From positions 612,809 to 676,808 of the forward strand of contig CBDBDS010000002.1 in NCBI GenBank assembly GCA_965203985.1: DNA of 64,000 nt, in the 5' to 3' direction. Shown here one piece after another: positions 1 to 18,091 of the stretch. The notes beneath the pieces were generated by a model. That model had not been told where the DNA came from, searched no databases, and worked only from the letters and a program-made list of their open reading frames with translations. Numbering within the stretch: position 1 is the first letter of the stretch; every line of letters begins with the position of its first letter. A program made the position numbers and the translations under genes. This DNA comes from Dehalococcoidia bacterium. GTDB lineage: Bacteria > Chloroflexota > Dehalococcoidia > Lucifugimonadales > UBA3495.

Positions 1-715
1 GTTGGTTTTAACATACCATGCTGTTGTCCGTGGCAATATGCCGCCCTGCGGTTCAATCAAGACATCCGCCGTCATGGTCACCAGGCTGAACCAACCAAAG
101 AGTGTGGGGGTGGTTCTGGCGATGGCCCGCTCGGACCACCCGGGGCTGGCCGATCTGACCCGGCCGGCGGGGCGGCGCTGGCTGGTACGGGGACGCGTCC
201 TAGCGACGCAGACAGTCCAGCATCTGCTGAGCGTAGTCGGCGAACCGCTTATGGCGATGCCCCTTCTGCCAGCCATAGCGGCCCGATGGCGCCAGCGCGG
301 TCAGGAAGGGCAACGCCCAGTGGCGGCCGGCCCACCCGACGCGGGTCAGCAACAGCAGGCTGACCCATTTCAGTTCCGGCGTCATCACTACCTGGTCGTC
401 GGTGGAACGCACCGGGTCTCGGTACCTCCCCTTGGCCATAATCTTCCGACCCCGGCGCCGCTCGATAGTCTCGCCAACGCCGAAAACCAACGGCGCGTCG
501 GTGGGGCACAACCGCTCAACCAACAGCAGCAGCAACGCCCGGCTCAGCTGTGGCGGCTGCCATCGGGCCCGGTTGAGCGCCTGGTGAACGATGGCGAAGT
601 CGCCGTGCTGGCCAATCCCACCAACCAGGAGTTGGGCGTTGCGTCAGGTCCGGCGCTCGAATAGATGCTCAAAGGGCAACAGCATGGTTACAACGACGGC
701 GGGCCGGGCAGGCAT
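1..715 (-). pseudogene. Degenerate DDE transposase relic (IS701/IS4-like family), runs off the left edge
   Basis: Minus-strand translation gives family-typical blocks in three pieces. 'MPARPAVVVTMLLPFEHLFERRT' is followed by an in-frame TGA (646-644). Next comes 'GDFAIVHQALNRARWQPPQLSRALLLLLVERL...GETIERRRGRKIMAKGRYRDPVRS...WALPFLTALAPSGRY...QQMLDCLRR', ending at TAG (202-200). A different frame then continues 'WSERAIARTTPTLFGWFSLVTM...RTTAWYVKTN' to position 1. The middle of the protein is missing. The family name is from memory of these motifs. Confidence 0.6.
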
Positions 716-1033: not shown

Positions 1034-2626
1034 TTGGCTGAACCGGAGACTCCCCGGGATCGGGTGATAGTACACCGGATCCGTAACGGCGATACCTACG
1101 AGGCTATCGGCAGCGATTGCGGCATCACCCGACAGCGGGTACAGCAGATCGCCGAGCGGTATGGCGTCACGCCGCTGCGCGCGGAGGACAGGCCCCTGAC
1201 CGAAAATGAGCTTGCGGTGGCCCGGCTGCTGCAATCCGAGCCGAGGCTGTCCTACCGTGAACTGGCCGAGCAGACGGGGTTGTCGCAGCGACACGTGCGT
1301 CGCATCGCCGATAAAGCAGGCGTAGCCTGGATGCGCCGACCGGTGTACCGGCGGGGCATCCACCGCTGGGACTACGACGAAGACGCCGGCACCGGCTGCT
1401 GGGTCTGGCGACATGGCAAGTCGGCCCACGGGCACGGCCGGCTGAACGTGGGAAACGGAAGATCAGAATACGCCCACCGATTCGCGTACGAGCAGCATCA
1501 CGGTCCATTTCCGTCGCGAGCATCCATCATCCACGACTGCGGAAACTACTCCTGCGTCAATCCGGAACACCTGAGTATGGAATTGGCCTCGGCTAATGTC
1601 GCAATGGCCCAGCGAGCCGCTCCCGAACGGATTACAGCCGACGGGGCCGAGGATGAATTGTTGCCGACCTCCTTCAGCGCGCCCCACGTCTCCGGGGAAT
1701 CCCGGGACATCTCGGAATTGGCGACACCTGACGACTATCCGGGATTTGAGGTTGTTCACGCCGTAGAGCCGACGATTACAAGCGGGCCACGTCGACGGGT
1801 CACCATGGCCCTGGTGTACGACTTCGACGGCACTCTGGCGCCGGGCAACATGCAGGAGCGGCAGTTCATTCCCGACGTTGGCATGACCCCCAACCAGTTC
1901 TGGACGGAGGTGGATCGCCTCTCCAGGGACAACCAGGCCGACCGCATCCTCATGTACATGTACTACATGCTGCGGAAGGCCGGTGAGCAGGGCGTTCCGG
2001 TGCGGCGGGAAGACTTCAAAGAGCGCGGCCAGTGGCTGGAGTATTTCCCCGGTGTGCTTGGATGGTTCAATCGCATCAGCGACTACGGAAGGAGCCGGGG
2101 CGTGCGCGTCGAGCACTACATCGTGTCCTCGGGCAACGGGGAGATCATCGAGGGCACGCCGGTGGCGAACCTGGTGGACCGGATCTACGCCTCCCGGTTC
2201 CTGTTCGACCAGAACGGGGTGGCGGTGTGGCCGGCGCTGGCGGTAAATTACACCACCAAGACCCAGTTCCTGTTCCGTATCAACAAGGGGGCCCACGACC
2301 TGAGCGACGATGCCGTCGTCAACCGGTTCGTCAGGCAGGAAGACCGGCCGGTGCCCTTCGCGAACATGGTGTACATTGGGGACGGGGAAACCGACGTGCC
2401 CTGCTTCCGGCTGGTGAAAGATCTGGGCGGGCTCTCGGTGGCGGTGTTCCCGCCGCGCACCAGGAACGCCCGGCAGAACGCCCAGCGGTTCGTGGACGAG
2501 GGAAGAGTCCATTGCGTGGCCCCGGCGGACTACACGGAAGACAGCCCGCTGGACCGCATCATCAGGGCCAACGTGGACATGCTGGCCAACCGGGAAGCGC
2601 TGGGCCGGGTGATGGGCCGAGCCTGA
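1034..2626 (+). CDS. Fusion protein: two HTH modules + HNH endonuclease + C-terminal HAD-superfamily hydrolase domain
   Basis: 530-codon ORF with a TTG start (GTG at 1064 is also possible). 'GDTYEAIGSDCGITRQRVQQIAERYG' and 'LSYRELAEQTGLSQRHVRRIADKAG' look like HTH units. 'CWVWRHGKSAHGHGRLNVGNGRSEYAHRFAYEQHHG...IIHDCGNYSCVNPEHL' is a phage-type HNH pattern. From an internal ATG at 1805, 'MALVYDFDGTLAPGNMQE...YIGDGETDVPCF' gives HAD motifs I (DxDGT) and IV (GDGxxD). Confidence 0.7.
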   Translation: MAEPETPRDRVIVHRIRNGDTYEAIGSDCGITRQRVQQIAERYGVTPLRAEDRPLTENELAVARLLQSEPRLSYRELAEQTGLSQRHVRRIADKAGVAWMRRPVYRRGIHRWDYDEDAGTGCWVWRHGKSAHGHGRLNVGNGRSEYAHRFAYEQHHGPFPSRASIIHDCGNYSCVNPEHLSMELASANVAMAQRAAPERITADGAEDELLPTSFSAPHVSGESRDISELATPDDYPGFEVVHAVEPTITSGPRRRVTMALVYDFDGTLAPGNMQERQFIPDVGMTPNQFWTEVDRLSRDNQADRILMYMYYMLRKAGEQGVPVRREDFKERGQWLEYFPGVLGWFNRISDYGRSRGVRVEHYIVSSGNGEIIEGTPVANLVDRIYASRFLFDQNGVAVWPALAVNYTTKTQFLFRINKGAHDLSDDAVVNRFVRQEDRPVPFANMVYIGDGETDVPCFRLVKDLGGLSVAVFPPRTRNARQNAQRFVDEGRVHCVAPADYTEDSPLDRIIRANVDMLANREALGRVMGRA

Positions 2627-2657: not shown

Positions 2658-3113
2658 TTGCCGGAGGTTAGTGTGACAGTCCAGGAGCAGGTGATGAATG
2701 AGATCAGGCGGATGAGCGTGGCCGACCTGGTGGACCTGGTGCGGGCCATTTCCAACGAGATGGGAACTCCTGGAGGGAATACCGAAGCCACTGTCCGGCA
2801 ACCCGAACCGGTTGCCGCGCGGTCCGGCGGCGGGGTATCGCTCCGCGACTTCGCAAACGACAGGATCGGGACCATTTCGGCGGTGCGGGAGGCGACCGAT
2901 CTTCGGTTGCGGGAAGCCCGTGAATTGTTGGAGAACGCTCCGGCGAGGATTGCTCAGGGATATCCAAGGGCCACAGGTTCTACAGTATCCGACGACTGGG
3001 AGGACGGGACGGAGGCGGCCGGGGTTCCCGCCGTGCCCAAGTCGCCGCTGCCTCAGGGCACGGCAGCAGCCGAAGCTCATCTGCCGGAAATGCCACCTGC
3101 GGAGGAAGCGTAA
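2658..3113 (+). CDS. Divergent ribosomal protein bL12 (L7/L12)-like paralogue with a non-canonical C-terminal tail
   Basis: 'QVMNEIRRMSVADLVDLVRAISNEMG' parallels the bL12 N-terminal dimerisation region (E. coli '[26 protein letters not shown]'). 'IGTISAVREATDLRLREARELLENAPARIAQG' parallels the CTD core ('[32 protein letters not shown]'). The end of the canonical CTD is replaced by a Pro/Ala/Glu-rich tail. GGAGG at 2663-2667 favours the in-frame GTG at 2673 as start. The gene is not adjacent to rplJ or any ribosomal operon. Confidence 0.65.
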   Translation: MPEVSVTVQEQVMNEIRRMSVADLVDLVRAISNEMGTPGGNTEATVRQPEPVAARSGGGVSLRDFANDRIGTISAVREATDLRLREARELLENAPARIAQGYPRATGSTVSDDWEDGTEAAGVPAVPKSPLPQGTAAAEAHLPEMPPAEEA

Positions 3114-3150
3114 CGGACGCCCTTCGGTCTTCAGATCAACTGCGGTCCGG

Positions 3151-3399
3151 CTACCATTCGTAATTGCCGTAGCGGTCCCCGTAGCGCCGTTTCTTGCCGG
3201 CGAGCACGGCGCTGTACTCGCCCAGCCGGAGGGAGCGGCGTGTGCGCCGGCGGTAATCCCGGTGCTCGCGGAGGCCGGTCACCCGGTCGTCCCGGGCCAG
3301 TTCCACACCCAGGTCGCGGTAGCCGTCGCGTACCCGTTCGACGTACTGACTGGTTTCAACTGCCCTGCGAGTGGGCTGTTTTCGAAAGGTCCTGCTCAT
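3151..3399 (-). CDS. Small Arg-rich hypothetical protein
   Basis: The ORF 3151..3426 has an internal start 'MSRTFRKQPTRRAVE...'. No recognisable domain. It is divergent from the 3545 promoter patch. Confidence 0.35.
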   Translation of the reverse strand: MSRTFRKQPTRRAVETSQYVERVRDGYRDLGVELARDDRVTGLREHRDYRRRTRRSLRLGEYSAVLAGKKRRYGDRYGNYEW

Positions 3400-3544
3400 G
3401 ACAAATCCAACGTACCACGCGGGCATTACCCAAACATTACCTTCGGCTCTCGGCGCAACGGCGCTGGCGTCGCACCGCGGGCGCCGCTGCCGGCGTAAAG
3501 CGCGCGGAAAAAGTTAAAACTTCTCGAATATCATTTTTTTTGTA

Positions 3545-3573
3545 TTGACATGACAGCGGTAAAGTGGTAAAGT
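3545..3573 (+). promoter_or_regulatory. Sigma70-type promoter with extended -10 and an upstream T-run
   Basis: TTGACA (3545-3550), 17 nt spacer, TAAAGT (3568-3573), with TG at 3565-3566. A T-run at 3534-3541 lies immediately upstream. This is a conspicuous AT-rich patch in GC-rich DNA, oriented toward the ATG at 3673. Confidence 0.5.
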
Positions 3574-3672
3574 CCCTTTCAACGATCAGTCCGAGCGACG
3601 GAGTTGCCGCCATCGAGAGCCGCTAAACCCGTCCCCAGCACTGACGGAATCTAACTCCGAGGTGAGCCACGC

Positions 3673-4092
3673 ATGGCTACCCCACTTTCCGCGTATGACG
3701 CGGCACCGCTTCCCCCACCCTCGCCGGCGCCTCTGGCCGTTTACCTGGTGGCCGACGGCGTTCCCACCGAAATCGAAGGCATTGACGACTTCGATATCAC
3801 CGTGGACAACCCCGCCAGCGAGGGCGCTGATGCTCCCGAGATGGACATCACCCTGGATTACGACCCGTCCAATCCCCAGCACCGGGCCCTGATTGCGGCC
3901 GGCGAGGGCGGCACCGTGACCATCCGCGTCGCTACCCGCGACCCTCACGGCGTGGCCATTGCGTGCCGTGAGATGGACTGCACCGTGGTGCGCTACCGCC
4001 TGTCCATGGACGAGCGGTTCCGCGACGACACCAAGCGCCTGCGGGTCAACTTCGACCTGGAGGCCGTGGGCGAAATCCGCATCATCGGCTGA
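3673..4092 (+). CDS. Hypothetical small protein, paralogue A of a tandem pair
   Basis: 139 aa with a GAGG RBS. Shares colinear blocks with the 4330 ORF: 'VYL..D..P..I.G..DF..TV.NP', 'ITLDYDP', 'L.AAGE', 'R.A.RD..G', 'DC.V.R'. No family recognised. Confidence 0.7.
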   Translation: MATPLSAYDAAPLPPPSPAPLAVYLVADGVPTEIEGIDDFDITVDNPASEGADAPEMDITLDYDPSNPQHRALIAAGEGGTVTIRVATRDPHGVAIACREMDCTVVRYRLSMDERFRDDTKRLRVNFDLEAVGEIRIIG

Positions 4093-4329: not shown

Positions 4330-4818
4330 ATGACAACGCAACCCAATACCGACCCGATGACCGTGTACCTGTTGCTCGAAGACGAGGAGCCGGTGGCGAT
4401 CCCGGGCGTCGTCGATTTCAACCTCACGGTGGAGAACCCTGAAGTAGCCGAGGAGCGCGAGGACGCTCGCCGGGTGAATCCCCGCCGGGCGCAGCAATTG
4501 CGACGGCGCCGCCGCGCCAACCCGGGCGACCTGAGCATCACCCTGGACTATGACCCCTGCGACTGGGTCCACCAGGAACTGCTGGCCGCAGGCGAAGACG
4601 ATGGACGCATCGCGCTGCGCATCGCCGTGCGTGACGGCATGGGCGCAACCGTTGCCGTCCAGGATGTGGACTGCTCCGTGCTCCGCCTCAGCATTTCGTT
4701 CCGCAAGCGGAACCGGCGCCGCCAGCAGGACGACGGAAGCCTCTACCAATTGGAGGCCGAGCTGCGCCTGCAGCGCCACGGCGACTTCCGCGACGTGGAC
4801 GTCGCCGGCGTCGGTTGA
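4330..4818 (+). CDS. Hypothetical small protein, paralogue B of a tandem pair (with an Arg-rich insertion)
   Basis: 162 aa with a GAGGA RBS 6 nt upstream. Colinear similarity to 3673..4092. It carries extra basic inserts 'RRVNPRRAQQLRRRRRA' and 'RKRNRRRQQ'. Confidence 0.7.
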   Translation: MTTQPNTDPMTVYLLLEDEEPVAIPGVVDFNLTVENPEVAEEREDARRVNPRRAQQLRRRRRANPGDLSITLDYDPCDWVHQELLAAGEDDGRIALRIAVRDGMGATVAVQDVDCSVLRLSISFRKRNRRRQQDDGSLYQLEAELRLQRHGDFRDVDVAGVG

Positions 4819-4998: not shown

Positions 4999-5208
4999 AT
5001 GAAAAACAAGACCACGGCGGCCATCCTGGCATTTCTGCTGGGCGGATTTGCCGCCGACCAGTTCTACCTGAACGAAACGCCCAAGCGGCTCTGGTGGCTG
5101 CTCTTGCCGCCGGTGGCCGGCGTGCTGGCGCTGATCGCCTCCATCCGATACGTCACCATGTCGGAGGTAGAGTTCGACCGCCGCTACAACAGCACGGCCA
5201 TCGAATGA
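4999..5208 (+). CDS. TM2 domain-containing small membrane protein
   Basis: 'NKTTAAILAFLLGGFAADQFYLN' matches the typical TM2-domain opening, followed by a second hydrophobic helix. 69 aa. Confidence 0.8.
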   Translation: MKNKTTAAILAFLLGGFAADQFYLNETPKRLWWLLLPPVAGVLALIASIRYVTMSEVEFDRRYNSTAIE

Positions 5209-7795: not shown

Positions 7796-8485
7796 TAGAA
7801 CCCCTAACAGAAAGAGGTCAAGCGTCGGAAGCAGATGATTGAGCAGCCCAGGGACAGGAAAGCTTCATGGATGTCGGCGCGGCGCTCGTAGCGCACCCGC
7901 AGCCGGCGGAACTGGTGCAGCCAACCCAGGGGCCGCTCGACCACCCAGCGATGCACTCCCAGCCCGCTGCCGTGTTCCGCGCCCCGTCCACCCAAATCTC
8001 CATATCAAGCAGGGGCAGCAACTGGATTACGCCGTGGCGATTGGCCCCGGTCAGGATGGCCGACCGCGGCGTTCCATTGGCTTCGGTGAGCACGTGATGC
8101 TTGCTTCCGGGCTTGCCCGGGTCCGTAGGATTGGGGCCGGTCTTTTTCCCCGCCGCCCACGGCCCGCACCGACGCGCTGTCCGCGCAAGCCCGCGATCAG
8201 TCCCGACCTTCTGCTCCGCGCAACCGGGACAATAGCGTTTCATGAAGCTTTGCCCACACTCCCGCCTGCTGCCAATCCCGCAACCGGCGCCAGCAGGTCA
8301 TGCCGGAACCGCATCCCATCTCCCGGGGCAGCATCTCCCAGTTCGTCGCTGGCCAAAGGTTCCGCCATCGAACACGACCTCCCACTTCCGTGTAATACTG
8401 TGCCAGCCCACCGCAACGGAATGAACTTGCCGAAAGATCAGCCGCCTGATTATGGATCAGCAAGCCATTTTGTTGGGGTTCTAAA
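7796..8485 (-). mobile_element. Internally deleted, frameshifted IS5-family insertion sequence
   Basis: Terminal inverted repeats: TTAGAACCCCTAACAGAAAG (7796-7815) versus the reverse complement of 8466-8485, TTTAGAACCCCAACAAAATG. The transposase is spread over three frames. These read '...WEMLPREMGCGSGMTCWRRLRDWQQAGVWAKLHETLL', then '...GKKTGPNPTDPGKPGSKHHVLTEANGTPRSAILTGANRHGVIQLLPLLD', then 'RGAEHGSGLGVHRWVVERPLGWLHQFRRLRVRYERRADIHEAFLSLGCSIICFRRL'. About 50 residues that normally lie between 'LLPLLD' and 'GTEHGSGLG' are absent. Confidence 0.75.
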
Positions 8486-8500
8486 CAGGAGAGTTTTCCC

Positions 8501-9004
8501 ATGGGAATCCTCAATTTGCTGGTAGCTCGTGGGGTCGATGCTACTGGCCTCCACGGCAGCGAGGAAGTCTTGGTCCGGGCCGCTCCGGAACAAGTTTATG
8601 AATTGCTGTGCGACGTGACGAAAATGGGAGAATGGAGCCCGGAGTGCTTTCGATGCGAATGGCTGGGTGATGCAGTCAGCGCGCGCCCGGGCGCGCGCTT
8701 CCGGGGACATAACCGACGAGGATGGATGAGGTGGTCTACCGAGTGTACGATAACCCATTACGAACCGTATGCAGTATTCGGATTCGAAACCAAGCCGCCC
8801 GTGGGTAAAGTGCAAAGCCGTTGGCGATTTGACCTTGAACCTGACGCGGATGGCACCATTCTGCGGGAATCGTTCGAAGTATTGTGGTACCCCCGTCCCG
8901 TGTTTGGCCTCGTTTTTGGCGGGCAGTCAAACCGACTTGCCCAGCTACGCGAGGGCGTGATCCAGACTCTGCTACGGATCAAACGCGCCGCCGAGGCGGC
9001 GTGA
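8501..9004 (+). CDS. SRPBCC (START/polyketide-cyclase-like) family protein
   Basis: 167 aa. 'APEQVYELLCDVTKMGEWSPEC...' is the typical SRPBCC opening. A CAGGAGAG RBS sits at 8487-8494. The IS right end lies 16 bp upstream of the ATG. Confidence 0.8.
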   Translation: MGILNLLVARGVDATGLHGSEEVLVRAAPEQVYELLCDVTKMGEWSPECFRCEWLGDAVSARPGARFRGHNRRGWMRWSTECTITHYEPYAVFGFETKPPVGKVQSRWRFDLEPDADGTILRESFEVLWYPRPVFGLVFGGQSNRLAQLREGVIQTLLRIKRAAEAA

Positions 9005-17338: not shown

Positions 17339-18091
17339 TTACTGAGCCGTCCGGCCGCCGTCGATGACCACCTCCGAGCCGGTGACGAACGAAGACTCGT
17401 CGCTGGCCAGATACAGCACGCCGTAAGCGATCTCAATCGGCTGGCCCACCCGCCCCAGCGGAACCCGGCCCACCTGGGCGGCGATGCGCTCCTCGTCGTC
17501 GGGCGTGTCACCCAGCATGGGCGTCTGTATCGGACCGGGATGCACGGAGTTGCACCGTATGCCCTCGCCAGCGTACTGGATGGCGGTGGACTTGGTGAAC
17601 AGGCGCACCGCCCCCTTGCTGGCCGCGTAGGCCCCTGAGGTCCCGGGAGCGGGAGCGATGCCGGCCCCGGACGAGATGTTGATGATGGAGCCGCCGCCGG
17701 CGTCGCGCATGGCCGGTATGACCTCGCGGGTGCCCAGGAACACGCCCTTGACGTTGATGTCCATGGTGCGCTCCCACTGCTCCGCGGTCATGTCCTCGAT
17801 GCCGCCCCGTGTGGAGATGCCGGCGTTGTTGACCAGGATGTCCACCCTGCCGAAGCGCGAAACCGCGGCCGCCACCGCATTGCGCCAGTCATCCTCGCTG
17901 GTCACGTCGAGGTGAACGAAAAGGCACTCGGCGCCGGTCTCATTGATCTCGGCCTCGGTCTGCCGACCGGCGTCGTCCAGAATGTCGCCGATGACGACCC
18001 TCGCGCCCTCGGAGGCGAACAGCCTGGCCTCCTGGGCGCCCATCCCCCTGGCTCCGCCGCTGATGATGGCAACCTTGTTTTCCAGCCGCAT
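17339..18091 (-). CDS. SDR-family oxidoreductase (classical, NAD(P)-dependent)
   Basis: Trimmed to 'MRLENKVAIISGGARGMG' (TGxxxGxG-type Rossmann motif), with an AGGAGG RBS upstream of the ATG at 18091. 'NNAG' and 'YAASKGAV' (YxxxK) are present. Confidence 0.85.
   Translation of the reverse strand: MRLENKVAIISGGARGMGAQEARLFASEGARVVIGDILDDAGRQTEAEINETGAECLFVHLDVTSEDDWRNAVAAAVSRFGRVDILVNNAGISTRGGIEDMTAEQWERTMDINVKGVFLGTREVIPAMRDAGGGSIINISSGAGIAPAPGTSGAYAASKGAVRLFTKSTAIQYAGEGIRCNSVHPGPIQTPMLGDTPDDEERIAAQVGRVPLGRVGQPIEIAYGVLYLASDESSFVTGSEVVIDGGRTAQ

Follow-up and report, generated by a model that had tools for sequence, protein, structure and literature searches.

A divergent bL12 paralogue with a conserved proline-rich motif beside a candidate defence gene in Dehalococcoidia

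The window, a 64-kb stretch of Dehalococcoidia DNA, encodes an extra, divergent copy of ribosomal protein bL12 which is distinct from the housekeeping rplL. Judged from its sequence, the gene is a real, selected, accessory paralogue of bL12. Three modules of the protein are under purifying selection, namely the N-terminal two-helix hairpin of bL12, a remnant of its C-terminal domain (CTD) and a proline-rich motif, and they are split by fast-evolving disordered linkers (Table 1). As a candidate role, that of a protein-protein adaptor fits best to this anatomy. The gene is paired with an upstream gene encoding an HNH-HAD fusion protein, and both belong to a conserved cluster with variable defence genes and mobile DNA at its border.

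Table 1. Features of the bL12-like gene and its surroundings (positions in the window).
Feature	Position	Strand	Evidence and remarks
HTH-HTH-HNH_3-HAD fusion gene, 530 aa	1034..2626	+	Pfam; ends 46 nt upstream of the bL12-like start, same strand
Shine-Dalgarno-like GGAGG	2663..2667	+	5 nt ahead of GTG 2673; seen in the sequence itself
bL12-like paralogue gene, 146 aa from GTG 2673	2673..3113	+	ORF; bL12 homology by Pfam, NCBIfam and PDB; start deduced from the N-termini of homologues
Module 1, bL12 N-terminal two-helix hairpin, residues 1-31, MTVQEQVMNEIRRMSVADLVDLVRAISNEMG	2673..2765	+	Gap-free alignment to the bL12 N-terminal domain; AlphaFold; dN/dS 0.21
Flexible hinge, residues 32-54	2766..2834	+	pLDDT <50; 23% mean identity; dN/dS 0.50
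Module 2, CTD beta1-alpha4-alpha5 remnant, residues 55-87, VSLRDFANDRIGTISAVREATDLRLREARELLE	2835..2933	+	PF00542 match; helical at pLDDT ~80; dN/dS 0.24
Degenerate beta2-alpha6 equivalent, residues 88-109	2934..2999	+	Alignments; dN/dS 0.65; pLDDT <50
Module 3, conserved proline-rich motif, residues 110-129, EDGTEAAGVPAVPKSPLPQG	3000..3059	+	Near-invariant columns; dN/dS 0.26
Convergent Arg-rich 91-aa ORF	3151..3426	-	75-99% identical in L001, L002, L004, L020; called as gene in L004, L020
Promoter-like site TTGACA-17-TAAAGT, TG-extended	3545..3573	+	Consensus match only; precedes the p139 cassette
p139, small protein paralogous to p162	3673..4092	+	Synteny; 74-99% identity
p162, small protein paralogous to p139	4330..4818	+	Synteny; 74-99% identity
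TM2-domain small membrane protein	4999..5208	+	Conserved cluster member

Reading frame and start

The ORF 2658..3113 (+) is present as originally predicted, counts 151 aa from TTG 2658, and both peptides quoted with the prediction are found inside its translation. TTG 2658, GTG 2673 and ATG 2694 are in-frame alternative starts. Since the N-termini of homologues read M-T/P-V-Q-E, GTG 2673 is the likely start. Database gene callers place it at ATG 2694, resulting in a protein of 139 aa (P0001, 100% identical).

Homology to bL12 and distinction from rplL

The Pfam profile PF00542 (Ribosomal_L12 CTD) matches residues 60-107 with 34.3 bits at a gathering cut-off of 25.9. TIGR00855 aligns to residues 9-107 (model positions 6-108 of 125, E=3.8e-10), and a phmmer search against the PDB finds bL12 chains matching residues 9-113 (E 1.3e-13 to 4e-10), a span which takes in the N-terminal domain (NTD) and the hinge as well as most of the CTD. 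Taken by itself, the NTD model PF16320 stays sub-threshold (11.2 bits vs 25); the TIGR00855 and PDB alignments pass through the NTD gap-free. On these profile and sequence matches the gene is confirmed as a genuine bL12 homologue. The original prediction had held that the NTD hairpin and the GTPase-contact helices are both kept while the canonical end of the CTD is lost. Both points agree with the Pfam, TIGR00855 and PDB alignments, as PF00542 is matched only over positions 3-50 of 67.

Several observations argue that this is not the housekeeping rplL. The TIGR00855 score of 40.2 bits misses the equivalog cut-off (84.4 bits). Moreover, two family members share one 3.64-Mb contig. The family member P0059 co-occurs with the canonical bL12 P0312, which is encoded in the tuf-secE-nusG-rplKAJL operon of the same lineage; the longest contigs of both are 4,218,939 bp in size and evidently are one and the same contig. 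The prediction had named a sole rplL as the case in which the gene would be a housekeeping gene in an odd location, and for P0059 a family member evidently coexists with a canonical copy. Finally, the gene lies away from rplJ, as predicted: neither rplJ nor a second rplL is present within the 64-kb window, and neither rplJ nor another rplL was found at any family locus examined. A weak tblastn match of E. coli bL12 at window positions 17924-18079 falls into a short-chain dehydrogenase and is hence due to chance.

Three conserved modules

In bL12 the N-terminal hairpin is the dimerisation and bL10-binding element. Module 1 keeps every hydrophobic position of the bL12 NTD and is modelled by AlphaFold as two helices (residues 3-13 and 16-30) with pLDDT ~90. 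It is the most conserved module, with a mean identity of 70%.

Module 2 corresponds to the part of the CTD whose alpha4-alpha5 surface in bL12 contacts the translational GTPases IF2, EF-Tu, EF-G and RF3. The residues equivalent to V66, I69, R73, L80 and E82 of E. coli bL12 are kept, K70 in most members; in the clade of the window the conserved Lys of alpha4 (IKAVRE) is Ser (ISAVRE). AlphaFold models alpha4-alpha5 as a single long helix, with moderate confidence only. The paralogue P0059 and the canonical P0312 of the same lineage have VIKAVREITDLGLREA in common, 16 identical residues of which 10 are encoded by synonymously different codons. Because the codons differ under identical residues, the ancestral surface was kept by selection and not by gene conversion.

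The subsequent beta2-alpha6 equivalent is degenerate in the window and shortened by deletion in other clades. A proline-rich motif replaces alpha6-beta3 and runs beyond the old C-terminus of bL12. Its family consensus is DGPExAGVPAKPKxPxPxG, whereby the G, G, P, P, P and P columns are nearly invariant, and it is absent outside the bL12-like genes from all loci examined. Hence the Pro/Ala/Glu-rich tail of the original prediction does exist, but is not mere debris as it holds this constrained motif. The overall AlphaFold model is mostly extended (pTM 0.23), contains no strands, shows a disordered tail after residue 87 and predicts no globular CTD. A Foldseek search of this low-scoring, extended model against the PDB yields zero matches.

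The whole-gene dN/dS of the family ranges from 0.19 to 0.74. The modules show values of 0.21, 0.24 and 0.26 as opposed to 0.50-0.65 in the linkers. No positive selection was seen by region, dN/dS being <1 in every region of the gene, and its non-synonymous evolution is 2-5 times faster than that of neighbour genes. Taken together, canonical bL12 (RplL; TIGR00855; PF16320 + PF00542) and the family share ~105 homologous residues, comprising the NTD hairpin, the hinge and CTD beta1-alpha4-alpha5, as well as an acidic pI. In contrast to canonical bL12, the family carries the proline-rich motif and an extension in place of alpha6-beta3, has a degenerate or deleted beta2-alpha6 without a predicted globular CTD, scores below the equivalog level, lies apart from rplJ, occurs sporadically and lineage-restricted, and coexists with the canonical copy.

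The upstream HNH-HAD gene

The fusion gene is found directly upstream and on the same strand at 10 loci (the window, L001-L004, L007-L009, L013 and L015), and a HAD-only gene takes its place in L014 and L018. Nine bL12-like clusters and nine HNH-HAD/HAD clusters have longest contigs of identical size. The 46-nt gap between the two genes in the window contains no promoter-like site. The bL12-like gene is almost certainly co-transcribed with the HTH-HNH-HAD gene, and the promoter-like site at 3545 marks the end of this putative two-gene unit. L020 also points to a coupling of the two genes: its fusion gene carries a frameshift, and one deletion takes the end of the fusion plus all but ~33 residues of the bL12-like gene, with p139 and TM2 intact. 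Exceptions are L005, which has a bL12-like gene without HAD partner that adjoins a TPR-ankyrin protein, and L006, where only a HAD remnant of 25 residues is left beside it.

Residues 255-526 of the fusion, i.e. the HAD part, match all three PADLOC PDC-S34 models (3e-117, 2.9e-98 and 7.2e-93), and by these matches the HAD domain is assigned to the PDC-S34 candidate defence family. The catalytic motifs DxDGT and GDGxTD are invariant. The HAD model has a pLDDT of 94 with 5'-nucleotidase III and SerB as nearest folds, and a sequence search of the domain against the PDB gives zero matches. PDCs are predictions by 'guilt by embedding' in known defence systems, and PDC-S34 was set as a candidate antiviral family by embedding in restriction and BREX systems (bioRxiv 10.1101/2024.01.29.577857). 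We found no paper in the literature that names PDC-S34. In PADLOC it is a single-gene phage defence candidate, a HAD-IB-like hydrolase. Stand-alone HAD homologues (59-64% identity) occur on Rhodobacterales plasmids, where they lie inside type I R-M operons adjacent to Shedu. In contrast to these stand-alone proteins, the HAD partner described here is part of a fusion with two HTH domains and an HNH_3 nuclease, and has a bL12-like gene as its companion.

Genomic setting

The neighbours are those the prediction had described, an HNH fusion gene upstream, which proves to be HTH-HNH_3-HAD, and a promoter-like site with a cassette of unknown small proteins downstream. Genes of the p139 family always co-occur with the bL12-like gene; a sequence search of p139 against the PDB gave zero matches. 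Related loci carry SIR2/DUF87, Eco57I, HSDR_N and Abi_2 genes upstream, and variable defence genes precede the cluster in L004, L007 and L013. Upstream of the cluster in the window only an IS701 fragment was identified, and IS701 and IS5 fragments flank the region. The term 'mobile-element graveyard' thus applies to these flanks but not to the cluster itself, which is intact and conserved. Rfam finds nothing over the window, L10 leader included. A bL10 alpha8-like docking helix was sought in the cluster proteins with no significant result, which has no bearing either way on ribosome docking.

L007 and L008 share an 11.9-kb repeat of 99% identity, which may be either a true duplication or an assembly artefact at a contig end and is not taken as evidence of mobility.

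A possible tether between translation and the HNH-HAD enzyme

The reading we favour, if tentatively, is a dimeric tether with ancestral stalk/GTPase contacts and a new proline-rich hook that works with the HNH-HAD enzyme; we regard it as quite possible, though somewhat short of probable. The NTD would dimerise the protein, which would act as a flexible tether. NTD, alpha4-alpha5 or both may keep the ancestral contact with the translation machinery, the candidates being the base of the stalk (bL10), canonical bL12, with which it would form mixed dimers, and a translational GTPase. The proline-rich motif would hold a second partner, for which the co-encoded HNH-HAD enzyme is the simplest choice and another protein of the cluster the alternative. 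The arrangement would link nuclease/phosphatase activity with the state of the translation apparatus.

An analogous layout is found in the archaeal and eukaryotic P-stalk proteins (aP1, P1/P2), where an N-terminal domain for dimerisation and anchoring is followed by a long disordered hinge and, towards the C-terminus, by a short conserved peptide for binding. The bL12-like protein has the same order of parts. This likeness is a functional analogy: homology is absent, and the tail of P-proteins is acidic and hydrophobic (DDMGFGLFD type), whereas the motif of the family is proline-rich and basic. That the paralogue is docked to the stalk or a GTPase and recruits or controls the HNH nuclease/HAD phosphatase via the proline-rich peptide, thus forming a ribosome-stalk-tethered immune or stress module convergent with short-peptide binding by P-proteins, is an extension which we rate as unlikely.

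Several points count against a tether. Alpha4-alpha5 reaches only moderate confidence within a model of low overall pTM, the clade of the window has ISAVRE for IKAVRE, and isolated bL12 CTD binds factors weakly. The bL12-like gene occurs without HAD in L005 and with the short remnant in L006, stand-alone PDC-S34 HADs of other phyla lack a bL12-like neighbour, and PDC-S34 is itself only a candidate defence family. As p139-family genes are always present and HAD is not, the true partner may lie downstream instead of upstream.

Alternative functions

A dominant-negative stalk subunit, serving as a translation throttle or abortive-infection effector, was considered. Its NTD would enter the bL10 stalk in place of bL12 and the crippled CTD would fail to stimulate GTPases, such that expression lowers translation, possibly in infection or stress. 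The strong conservation of the NTD, the loss of the CTD fold and the defence-like genomic context are in line with this, but it leaves unexplained why selection constrains alpha4-alpha5 and the proline-rich motif just as it does the NTD. Moreover, a constitutively co-transcribed poison needs a regulator or antidote, and none is evident. We consider this explanation improbable.

The fast non-synonymous evolution, the retained bL12 surfaces and the coupling to a candidate defence gene would also suit an off-ribosome decoy or sensor, i.e. a bL12 mimic that is bound or modified by a phage factor aimed at the stalk or GTPases and then triggers the HNH-HAD enzyme. Phages do encode ribosome-associating bL12-domain proteins (PMC6375957). 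However, dN/dS below 1 in every region with positive selection unseen does not favour a decoy, a phage trigger is not known and the idea is purely analogical. Its probability seems rather low to us.

Doubtful, too, is a scaffold for the p139/p162/TM2 cluster that lacks any link to HNH-HAD or translation and uses the bL12 parts as a chassis for dimerisation and linkage. The presence of p139-family genes where HAD is absent (L005) speaks for it, and the motif may bind the repeat proteins (LRR, TPR-ankyrin) of these clusters. Against it, a promoter-like site of its own precedes the p139 cassette, the convergent ORF stands between the cassette and the bL12-like gene, and in L020 p139 and TM2 have outlasted the deletion of the bL12-like gene. 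Nor would a scaffold account for the strict conservation of alpha4-alpha5, which is identical to canonical bL12.

The alpha4-turn-alpha5 of L7/L12 resembles a helix-turn-helix according to published structural observations, and an architecture of dimeriser, linker and two helices would be compatible with a dimeric HTH transcription regulator of the island, in which the NTD dimerises. Yet the proteins of the family are strongly acidic (pI 4.4-5.1, as in bL12; net charge -6 to -13), the helix segment carries a net charge of -1, a Pfam HTH match is absent, and repeats and operator-like sequences near the gene are unremarkable with no repeated operators. A regulator is therefore very unlikely.

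Distribution and origin

At 90% identity the family falls into 34 clusters, and a search of 1.84 billion 50%-identity representatives gave 13 single-stretch full-length clusters. So far it is found only in MAGs and metagenome contigs of Dehalococcoidia (Chloroflexota). Identity between clades is 44-53%. In a NJ tree the family is monophyletic with 100% bootstrap, and its sister placement with Chloroflexi bL12 receives a bootstrap of only 7%. The claim of a host origin therefore rests on the HMM ranking, in which Chloroflexi bL12 are the best-scoring canonical relatives, and on shared signature peptides. In several related genomes its chromosomal location is constant, with a class-I aminoacyl-tRNA synthetase gene downstream of it.

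This speaks against the leading idea of the original prediction, a phage-derived or prophage bL12 for translation hijack, which is largely refuted and hardly credible now. In its favour, bL12-domain genes are known from phages, the surroundings include IS fragments and an HNH gene, and p139 and p162 show weak tail-tube-like matches (1e-3). However, no relatives were found in IMG/VR (2.9 million contigs) or GenBank phages (50,697 phage records), there is no PHROG match, and the cluster is devoid of capsid, terminase, portal and other genes for phage structure or packaging. Mizuno et al. 2019 (PMC6375957) described ribosome-associated phage bL12-domain proteins which keep factor-contact residues, and proposed that the domains offer interfaces for translation factors. 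Those domains, all on phage genomes, sit in otherwise unrelated and often larger polypeptides of up to 724 aa (PMC6375957). The family shares with them extra bL12-derived sequences outside the ribosomal operon and the kept factor-contact residues. Unlike the phage proteins, its members have kept the NTD and only part of the CTD, and they are encoded on Dehalococcoidia chromosomes, with no viral relatives detected.

Proteins with tandem L12-CTD repeats (e.g. P0073, P0074, P0077, P0083) are a further case of modules derived from the bL12 CTD outside the ribosome. Forming a lineage of their own, they have 4-7 full CTD copies including alpha6-beta3, are 364-1056 aa in length, and in contrast to the bL12-like family have neither NTD nor proline-rich motif.

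A decaying, non-functional rplL duplicate or an oddly placed housekeeping rplL, as the partial loss of the CTD and the high divergence between clades might suggest, can be practically dismissed given intact ORFs in 34 clusters, dN/dS well below 1 in the three modules, novel motif included, the missed equivalog cut-off, two copies on one contig, and the 4.2-Mb contig that evidently carries both a family member and a canonical rplL within the usual operon.

Significance

Most bacterial ribosomal-protein paralogues are, to our knowledge, either zinc-independent duplicates or copies carried by phages. A cellular bL12 paralogue in which the stalk-anchoring end and the factor-contact helices persist but a conserved linear motif takes the place of the globular head was not described in the literature searched. 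If binding to the stalk or to translational GTPases holds true, the protein would be a natural tool to bring an enzyme to the GTPase-associated centre, and the candidate PDC-S34 HAD family would gain a concrete, testable link to translation. If such binding is false, the family would represent a clear case of a ribosomal protein recycled as a dimeric tether.

A divergent bL12 homologue with three conserved blocks

The original prediction described an ORF with two bL12-like peptides, and ORF and peptides were both found in the sequence (coordinates are listed in the table). The proposed homology to the ribosomal stalk protein bL12 is significant by Pfam PF00542, NCBIfam TIGR00855 and phmmer against the PDB. 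The match to Ribosomal_L12 (PF00542) reaches 34.3 bits (gathering score 25.9) and is limited to profile positions 3-50 of 67. TIGR00855 aligns by model positions 6-108 of 125 with residues 9-107 (3.8e-10). PDB bL12 chains are matched at 1.3e-13 to 4e-10, the alignment spanning the NTD, the hinge and most of the CTD. Homologues begin with M-T/P-V-Q-E-Q-V-L, which makes a GTG the likely start (product 146 aa); GGAGG is located five bases 5’ of it. Public gene calls (P0001) start at an ATG.

A search of 5.8 billion proteins yielded 34 clusters of 102-194 aa with 40-86% identity. In an exhaustive search of 1.84 billion representatives, 13 family clusters were full-length in a single stretch, ranked above canonical bL12s and an unrelated class in which 4-7 complete L12 CTDs stand in tandem. 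When GTDB species genomes were scanned with one peptide pattern, the family, which is unlike these tandem-CTD proteins, turned up in three Dehalococcoidia MAGs and no other genome. It is monophyletic in an NJ tree (100% bootstrap) that gives no resolved sister group; the top-scoring canonical relatives are Chloroflexi bL12s. The tandem-CTD proteins (P0073, P0074, P0077, P0081, P0083; 364-1056 aa), some with signal-like N-terminal or hydrophobic C-terminal segments, appear to be a separate, uncharacterised class. Close canonical bL12 relatives are contained in an assembly from the sponge Geodia barretti, a hint that the Dehalococcoidia lineage carrying the family includes sponge symbionts.

Three blocks are conserved in the family alignments: the NTD, (V/L)LDxIRRMSVADLVDLVRA; beta1-alpha4-alpha5, VSLRDFGADRIxxIKAVRExTDLGLREA; and a proline-rich block, DGPExAGVPAKPKxPxPxG. 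The latter aligns with the canonical bL12 end LEEAGAxVxV(K) and thus looks like a remodelled alpha6-beta3 with a read-through extension. The beta2-alpha6 stretch is about full length yet degenerate in the window’s clade and deleted in other clades.

An AlphaFold2 model built on a 30-sequence alignment shows the NTD hairpin with confidence (helices at residues 3-13 and 16-30, pLDDT about 90) and a helical region at residues 58-87 (pLDDT about 80), while hinge and tail are disordered. The model contains no beta strands, its pTM is 0.23 and Foldseek returned no match. The globular CTD has thus probably been lost.

The gene is a selected paralogue and not housekeeping rplL

Whole-gene dN/dS is 0.19-0.74, with dN 2-5 times that of the neighbour genes. 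Pooled over inter-clade pairs, dN/dS is 0.21 in the NTD, 0.24 in beta1-alpha4-alpha5 and 0.26 in the proline motif; it is 0.50 in the hinge, 0.65 in the degenerate beta2-alpha6 and 0.60 at the C-end. Sixteen identical residues, VIKAVREITDLGLREA, are common to paralogue P0059 and canonical bL12 P0312 of one lineage. Codons differ synonymously at 10 of these 16 residues, hence the identity is held by selection and not by recent gene conversion.

The dS of the gene is also higher than that of its neighbours. Against four related loci (L003, L004, L007, L009) DNA similarity vanishes exactly over gene body, antisense ORF and intergenic DNA, and both flanks are still alignable between distant loci. 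Similarity loss and raised dS could reflect linker alignment noise or cassette-like replacement.

Neither rplJ nor a second rplL occurs in the window or any family locus, and one 3.64-Mb contig holds two family members. Canonical P0312 (131 aa, both Pfam domains) lies in the order tuf-rpmG-secE-nusG-rplK-rplA-rplJ-rplL, its longest contig (4,218,939 bp) having exactly the length of the one with P0059. With no rplJ nearby, canonical rplL in its own operon and a TIGR00855 score of 40.2 bits, far under the equivalog cut-off of 84.4, the claim of an extra copy away from rplJ was borne out. A housekeeping RplL was rejected on the cut-off, the missing rplJ and the two copies on one contig; the family is homologous to RplL, yet falls outside it.

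Linkage to an HNH-HAD gene

The bL12-like gene is preceded, at a distance of 46 nt, by a gene of 530 aa in the same orientation, and no promoter-like site was found in the gap. The product of this upstream gene combines two HTH domains with an HNH_3 nuclease and a HAD hydrolase. Its HAD part has a match at 3e-117 to PDC-S34, a single-gene phage defence candidate in PADLOC, and the catalytic motifs of the HAD part are invariant. The nearest structures to the HAD model (pLDDT 94) are cytosolic 5’-nucleotidase III and SerB phosphoserine phosphatases (TM about 0.55). PDCs are candidates predicted from their location inside BREX, DISARM and type I R-M systems (‘guilt by embedding’; bioRxiv 10.1101/2024.01.29.577857). 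The fusion is present in about 25 clusters, and nine fusion/HAD clusters agree with nine bL12-like clusters in the size of the longest contig.

On Rhodobacterales plasmids (L016, NZ_CP069371.1; L017, NZ_CP017782.1), type I R-M operons carry stand-alone HAD homologues (59-64% identity) between their hsdS and hsdR genes, with no bL12-like neighbour. One of these homologues adjoins a Shedu nuclease. Such identity across phyla suggests horizontal transfer of the PDC-S34-type HAD.

The order HNH-HAD, bL12-like, (antisense ORF of 83-91 aa), p139, p162, TM2 recurs in the window, L001-L004, L007-L009, L013, L015 and L018. A promoter-like site precedes p139. The upstream side of L004, L007 and L013 has a variable content of defence or mobile genes; further downstream, L004, L007, L009, L013 and L014 carry sigma-like genes and a class-I aminoacyl-tRNA synthetase (936 aa). 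There are two exceptions: in L005 the bL12-like gene lacks the HAD and is preceded by genes for a TPR-ankyrin protein and four paralogues of p139, and in L006 the HAD is reduced to a 25-residue remnant. In L020 the fusion is frameshifted and a deletion has connected HAD residue ~484 with the 33 N-terminal residues that are left of the bL12-like gene; p139 and TM2 are intact.

The small paralogous proteins p139 and p162 are 74-99% identical across loci, exceeding the conservation of the bL12-like gene, and have weak tail-tube-like matches (PF16460, phrog_158, about 1e-3). The convergent Arg-rich 91-aa ORF is conserved (75-99%) in L001, L002, L004 and L020, is absent from other clades and has no family match. 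Transposase remnants flank the cluster in the window, the IS5 remnant having an 82-94% identical relative in L005. Related clusters include eukaryote-like repeat proteins, namely LRR proteins with internal repeats and a protein of 677 aa with TPR and ankyrin repeats. Sigma-70-like and HipA_C kinase genes, and HIRAN and nucleoside 2-deoxyribosyltransferase-like genes (L013, L018, L020), lie downstream in some related genomes. An 11.9-kb stretch with both HNH-HAD and bL12-like genes is doubled on one 360-kb contig (99.07% identity); the second copy may be genuine or may stem from misassembly.

Coordinates of features in the window and in related loci
Feature	Locus	Position	Strand
IS701-family transposase fragment	window	200-535	-
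HNH-HAD gene	window	1034-2626	+
bL12-like ORF	window	2658-3113	+
Likely start, GTG	window	2673	+
Start in public calls, ATG	window	2694	+
Region of lost similarity	window	2747-3577	
Arg-rich 91-aa ORF	window	3151-3426	-
Promoter-like site	window	3545-3573	
p139	window	3673-4092	+
p162	window	4330-4818	+
IS5-family transposase, frameshifted	window	7804-8514	-
Four tandem p139/p162-type paralogues	L005	4793-7212	
Eukaryote-like repeat proteins	L001	7892-11320	
	L004	12507-15707	
	L013	12258-12959	
	L005	7419-9452	
11.9-kb repeat	L007	4889-16814	
11.9-kb repeat, second copy (contig end)	L008	4889-16826	
Downstream gene regions	L013	13408-19934	
	L018	6359-7765	
	L020	10372-11663	

Possible function

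Taken together, the bL12-like gene is a bL12 paralogue that is under selection, confined to one lineage and made up of three conserved modules; it is genetically linked to an HNH-HAD gene from a family of defence candidates. We tentatively favour a putative dimeric flexible tether that would reuse ancestral bL12 contacts. These would be with the bL10 stalk base, with bL12 in mixed dimers and/or, via alpha4-alpha5, with translational GTPases. The new proline-rich peptide would grip another partner, for which the co-encoded HNH-HAD enzyme is the most economical candidate. P-stalk proteins have a like layout of dimeriser, hinge and short binding peptide; this is an analogy, no homology being claimed.

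A dominant-negative stalk subunit is an unlikely alternative to such a tether, a decoy or sensor off the ribosome is similarly doubtful, and we give no better chance to a scaffold for the p139 cluster with no tie to translation. An HTH regulator is quite improbable and disfavoured by the acidic charge, the pI in the family being 4.4-5.1 as in bL12. The suggested viral or prophage origin found no backing, as relatives are absent from IMG/VR and GenBank phages and no PHROG matches, making a phage derivation very improbable. Phage bL12 proteins, which the family does not resemble, are described as ‘bL12 domains’ that in many cases form part of larger proteins (PMC6375957). A pseudogene or housekeeping copy is hardly credible.

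Returning to the putative tether, the interest of this paralogue would rise sharply if binding to the stalk or to GTPases proves true.
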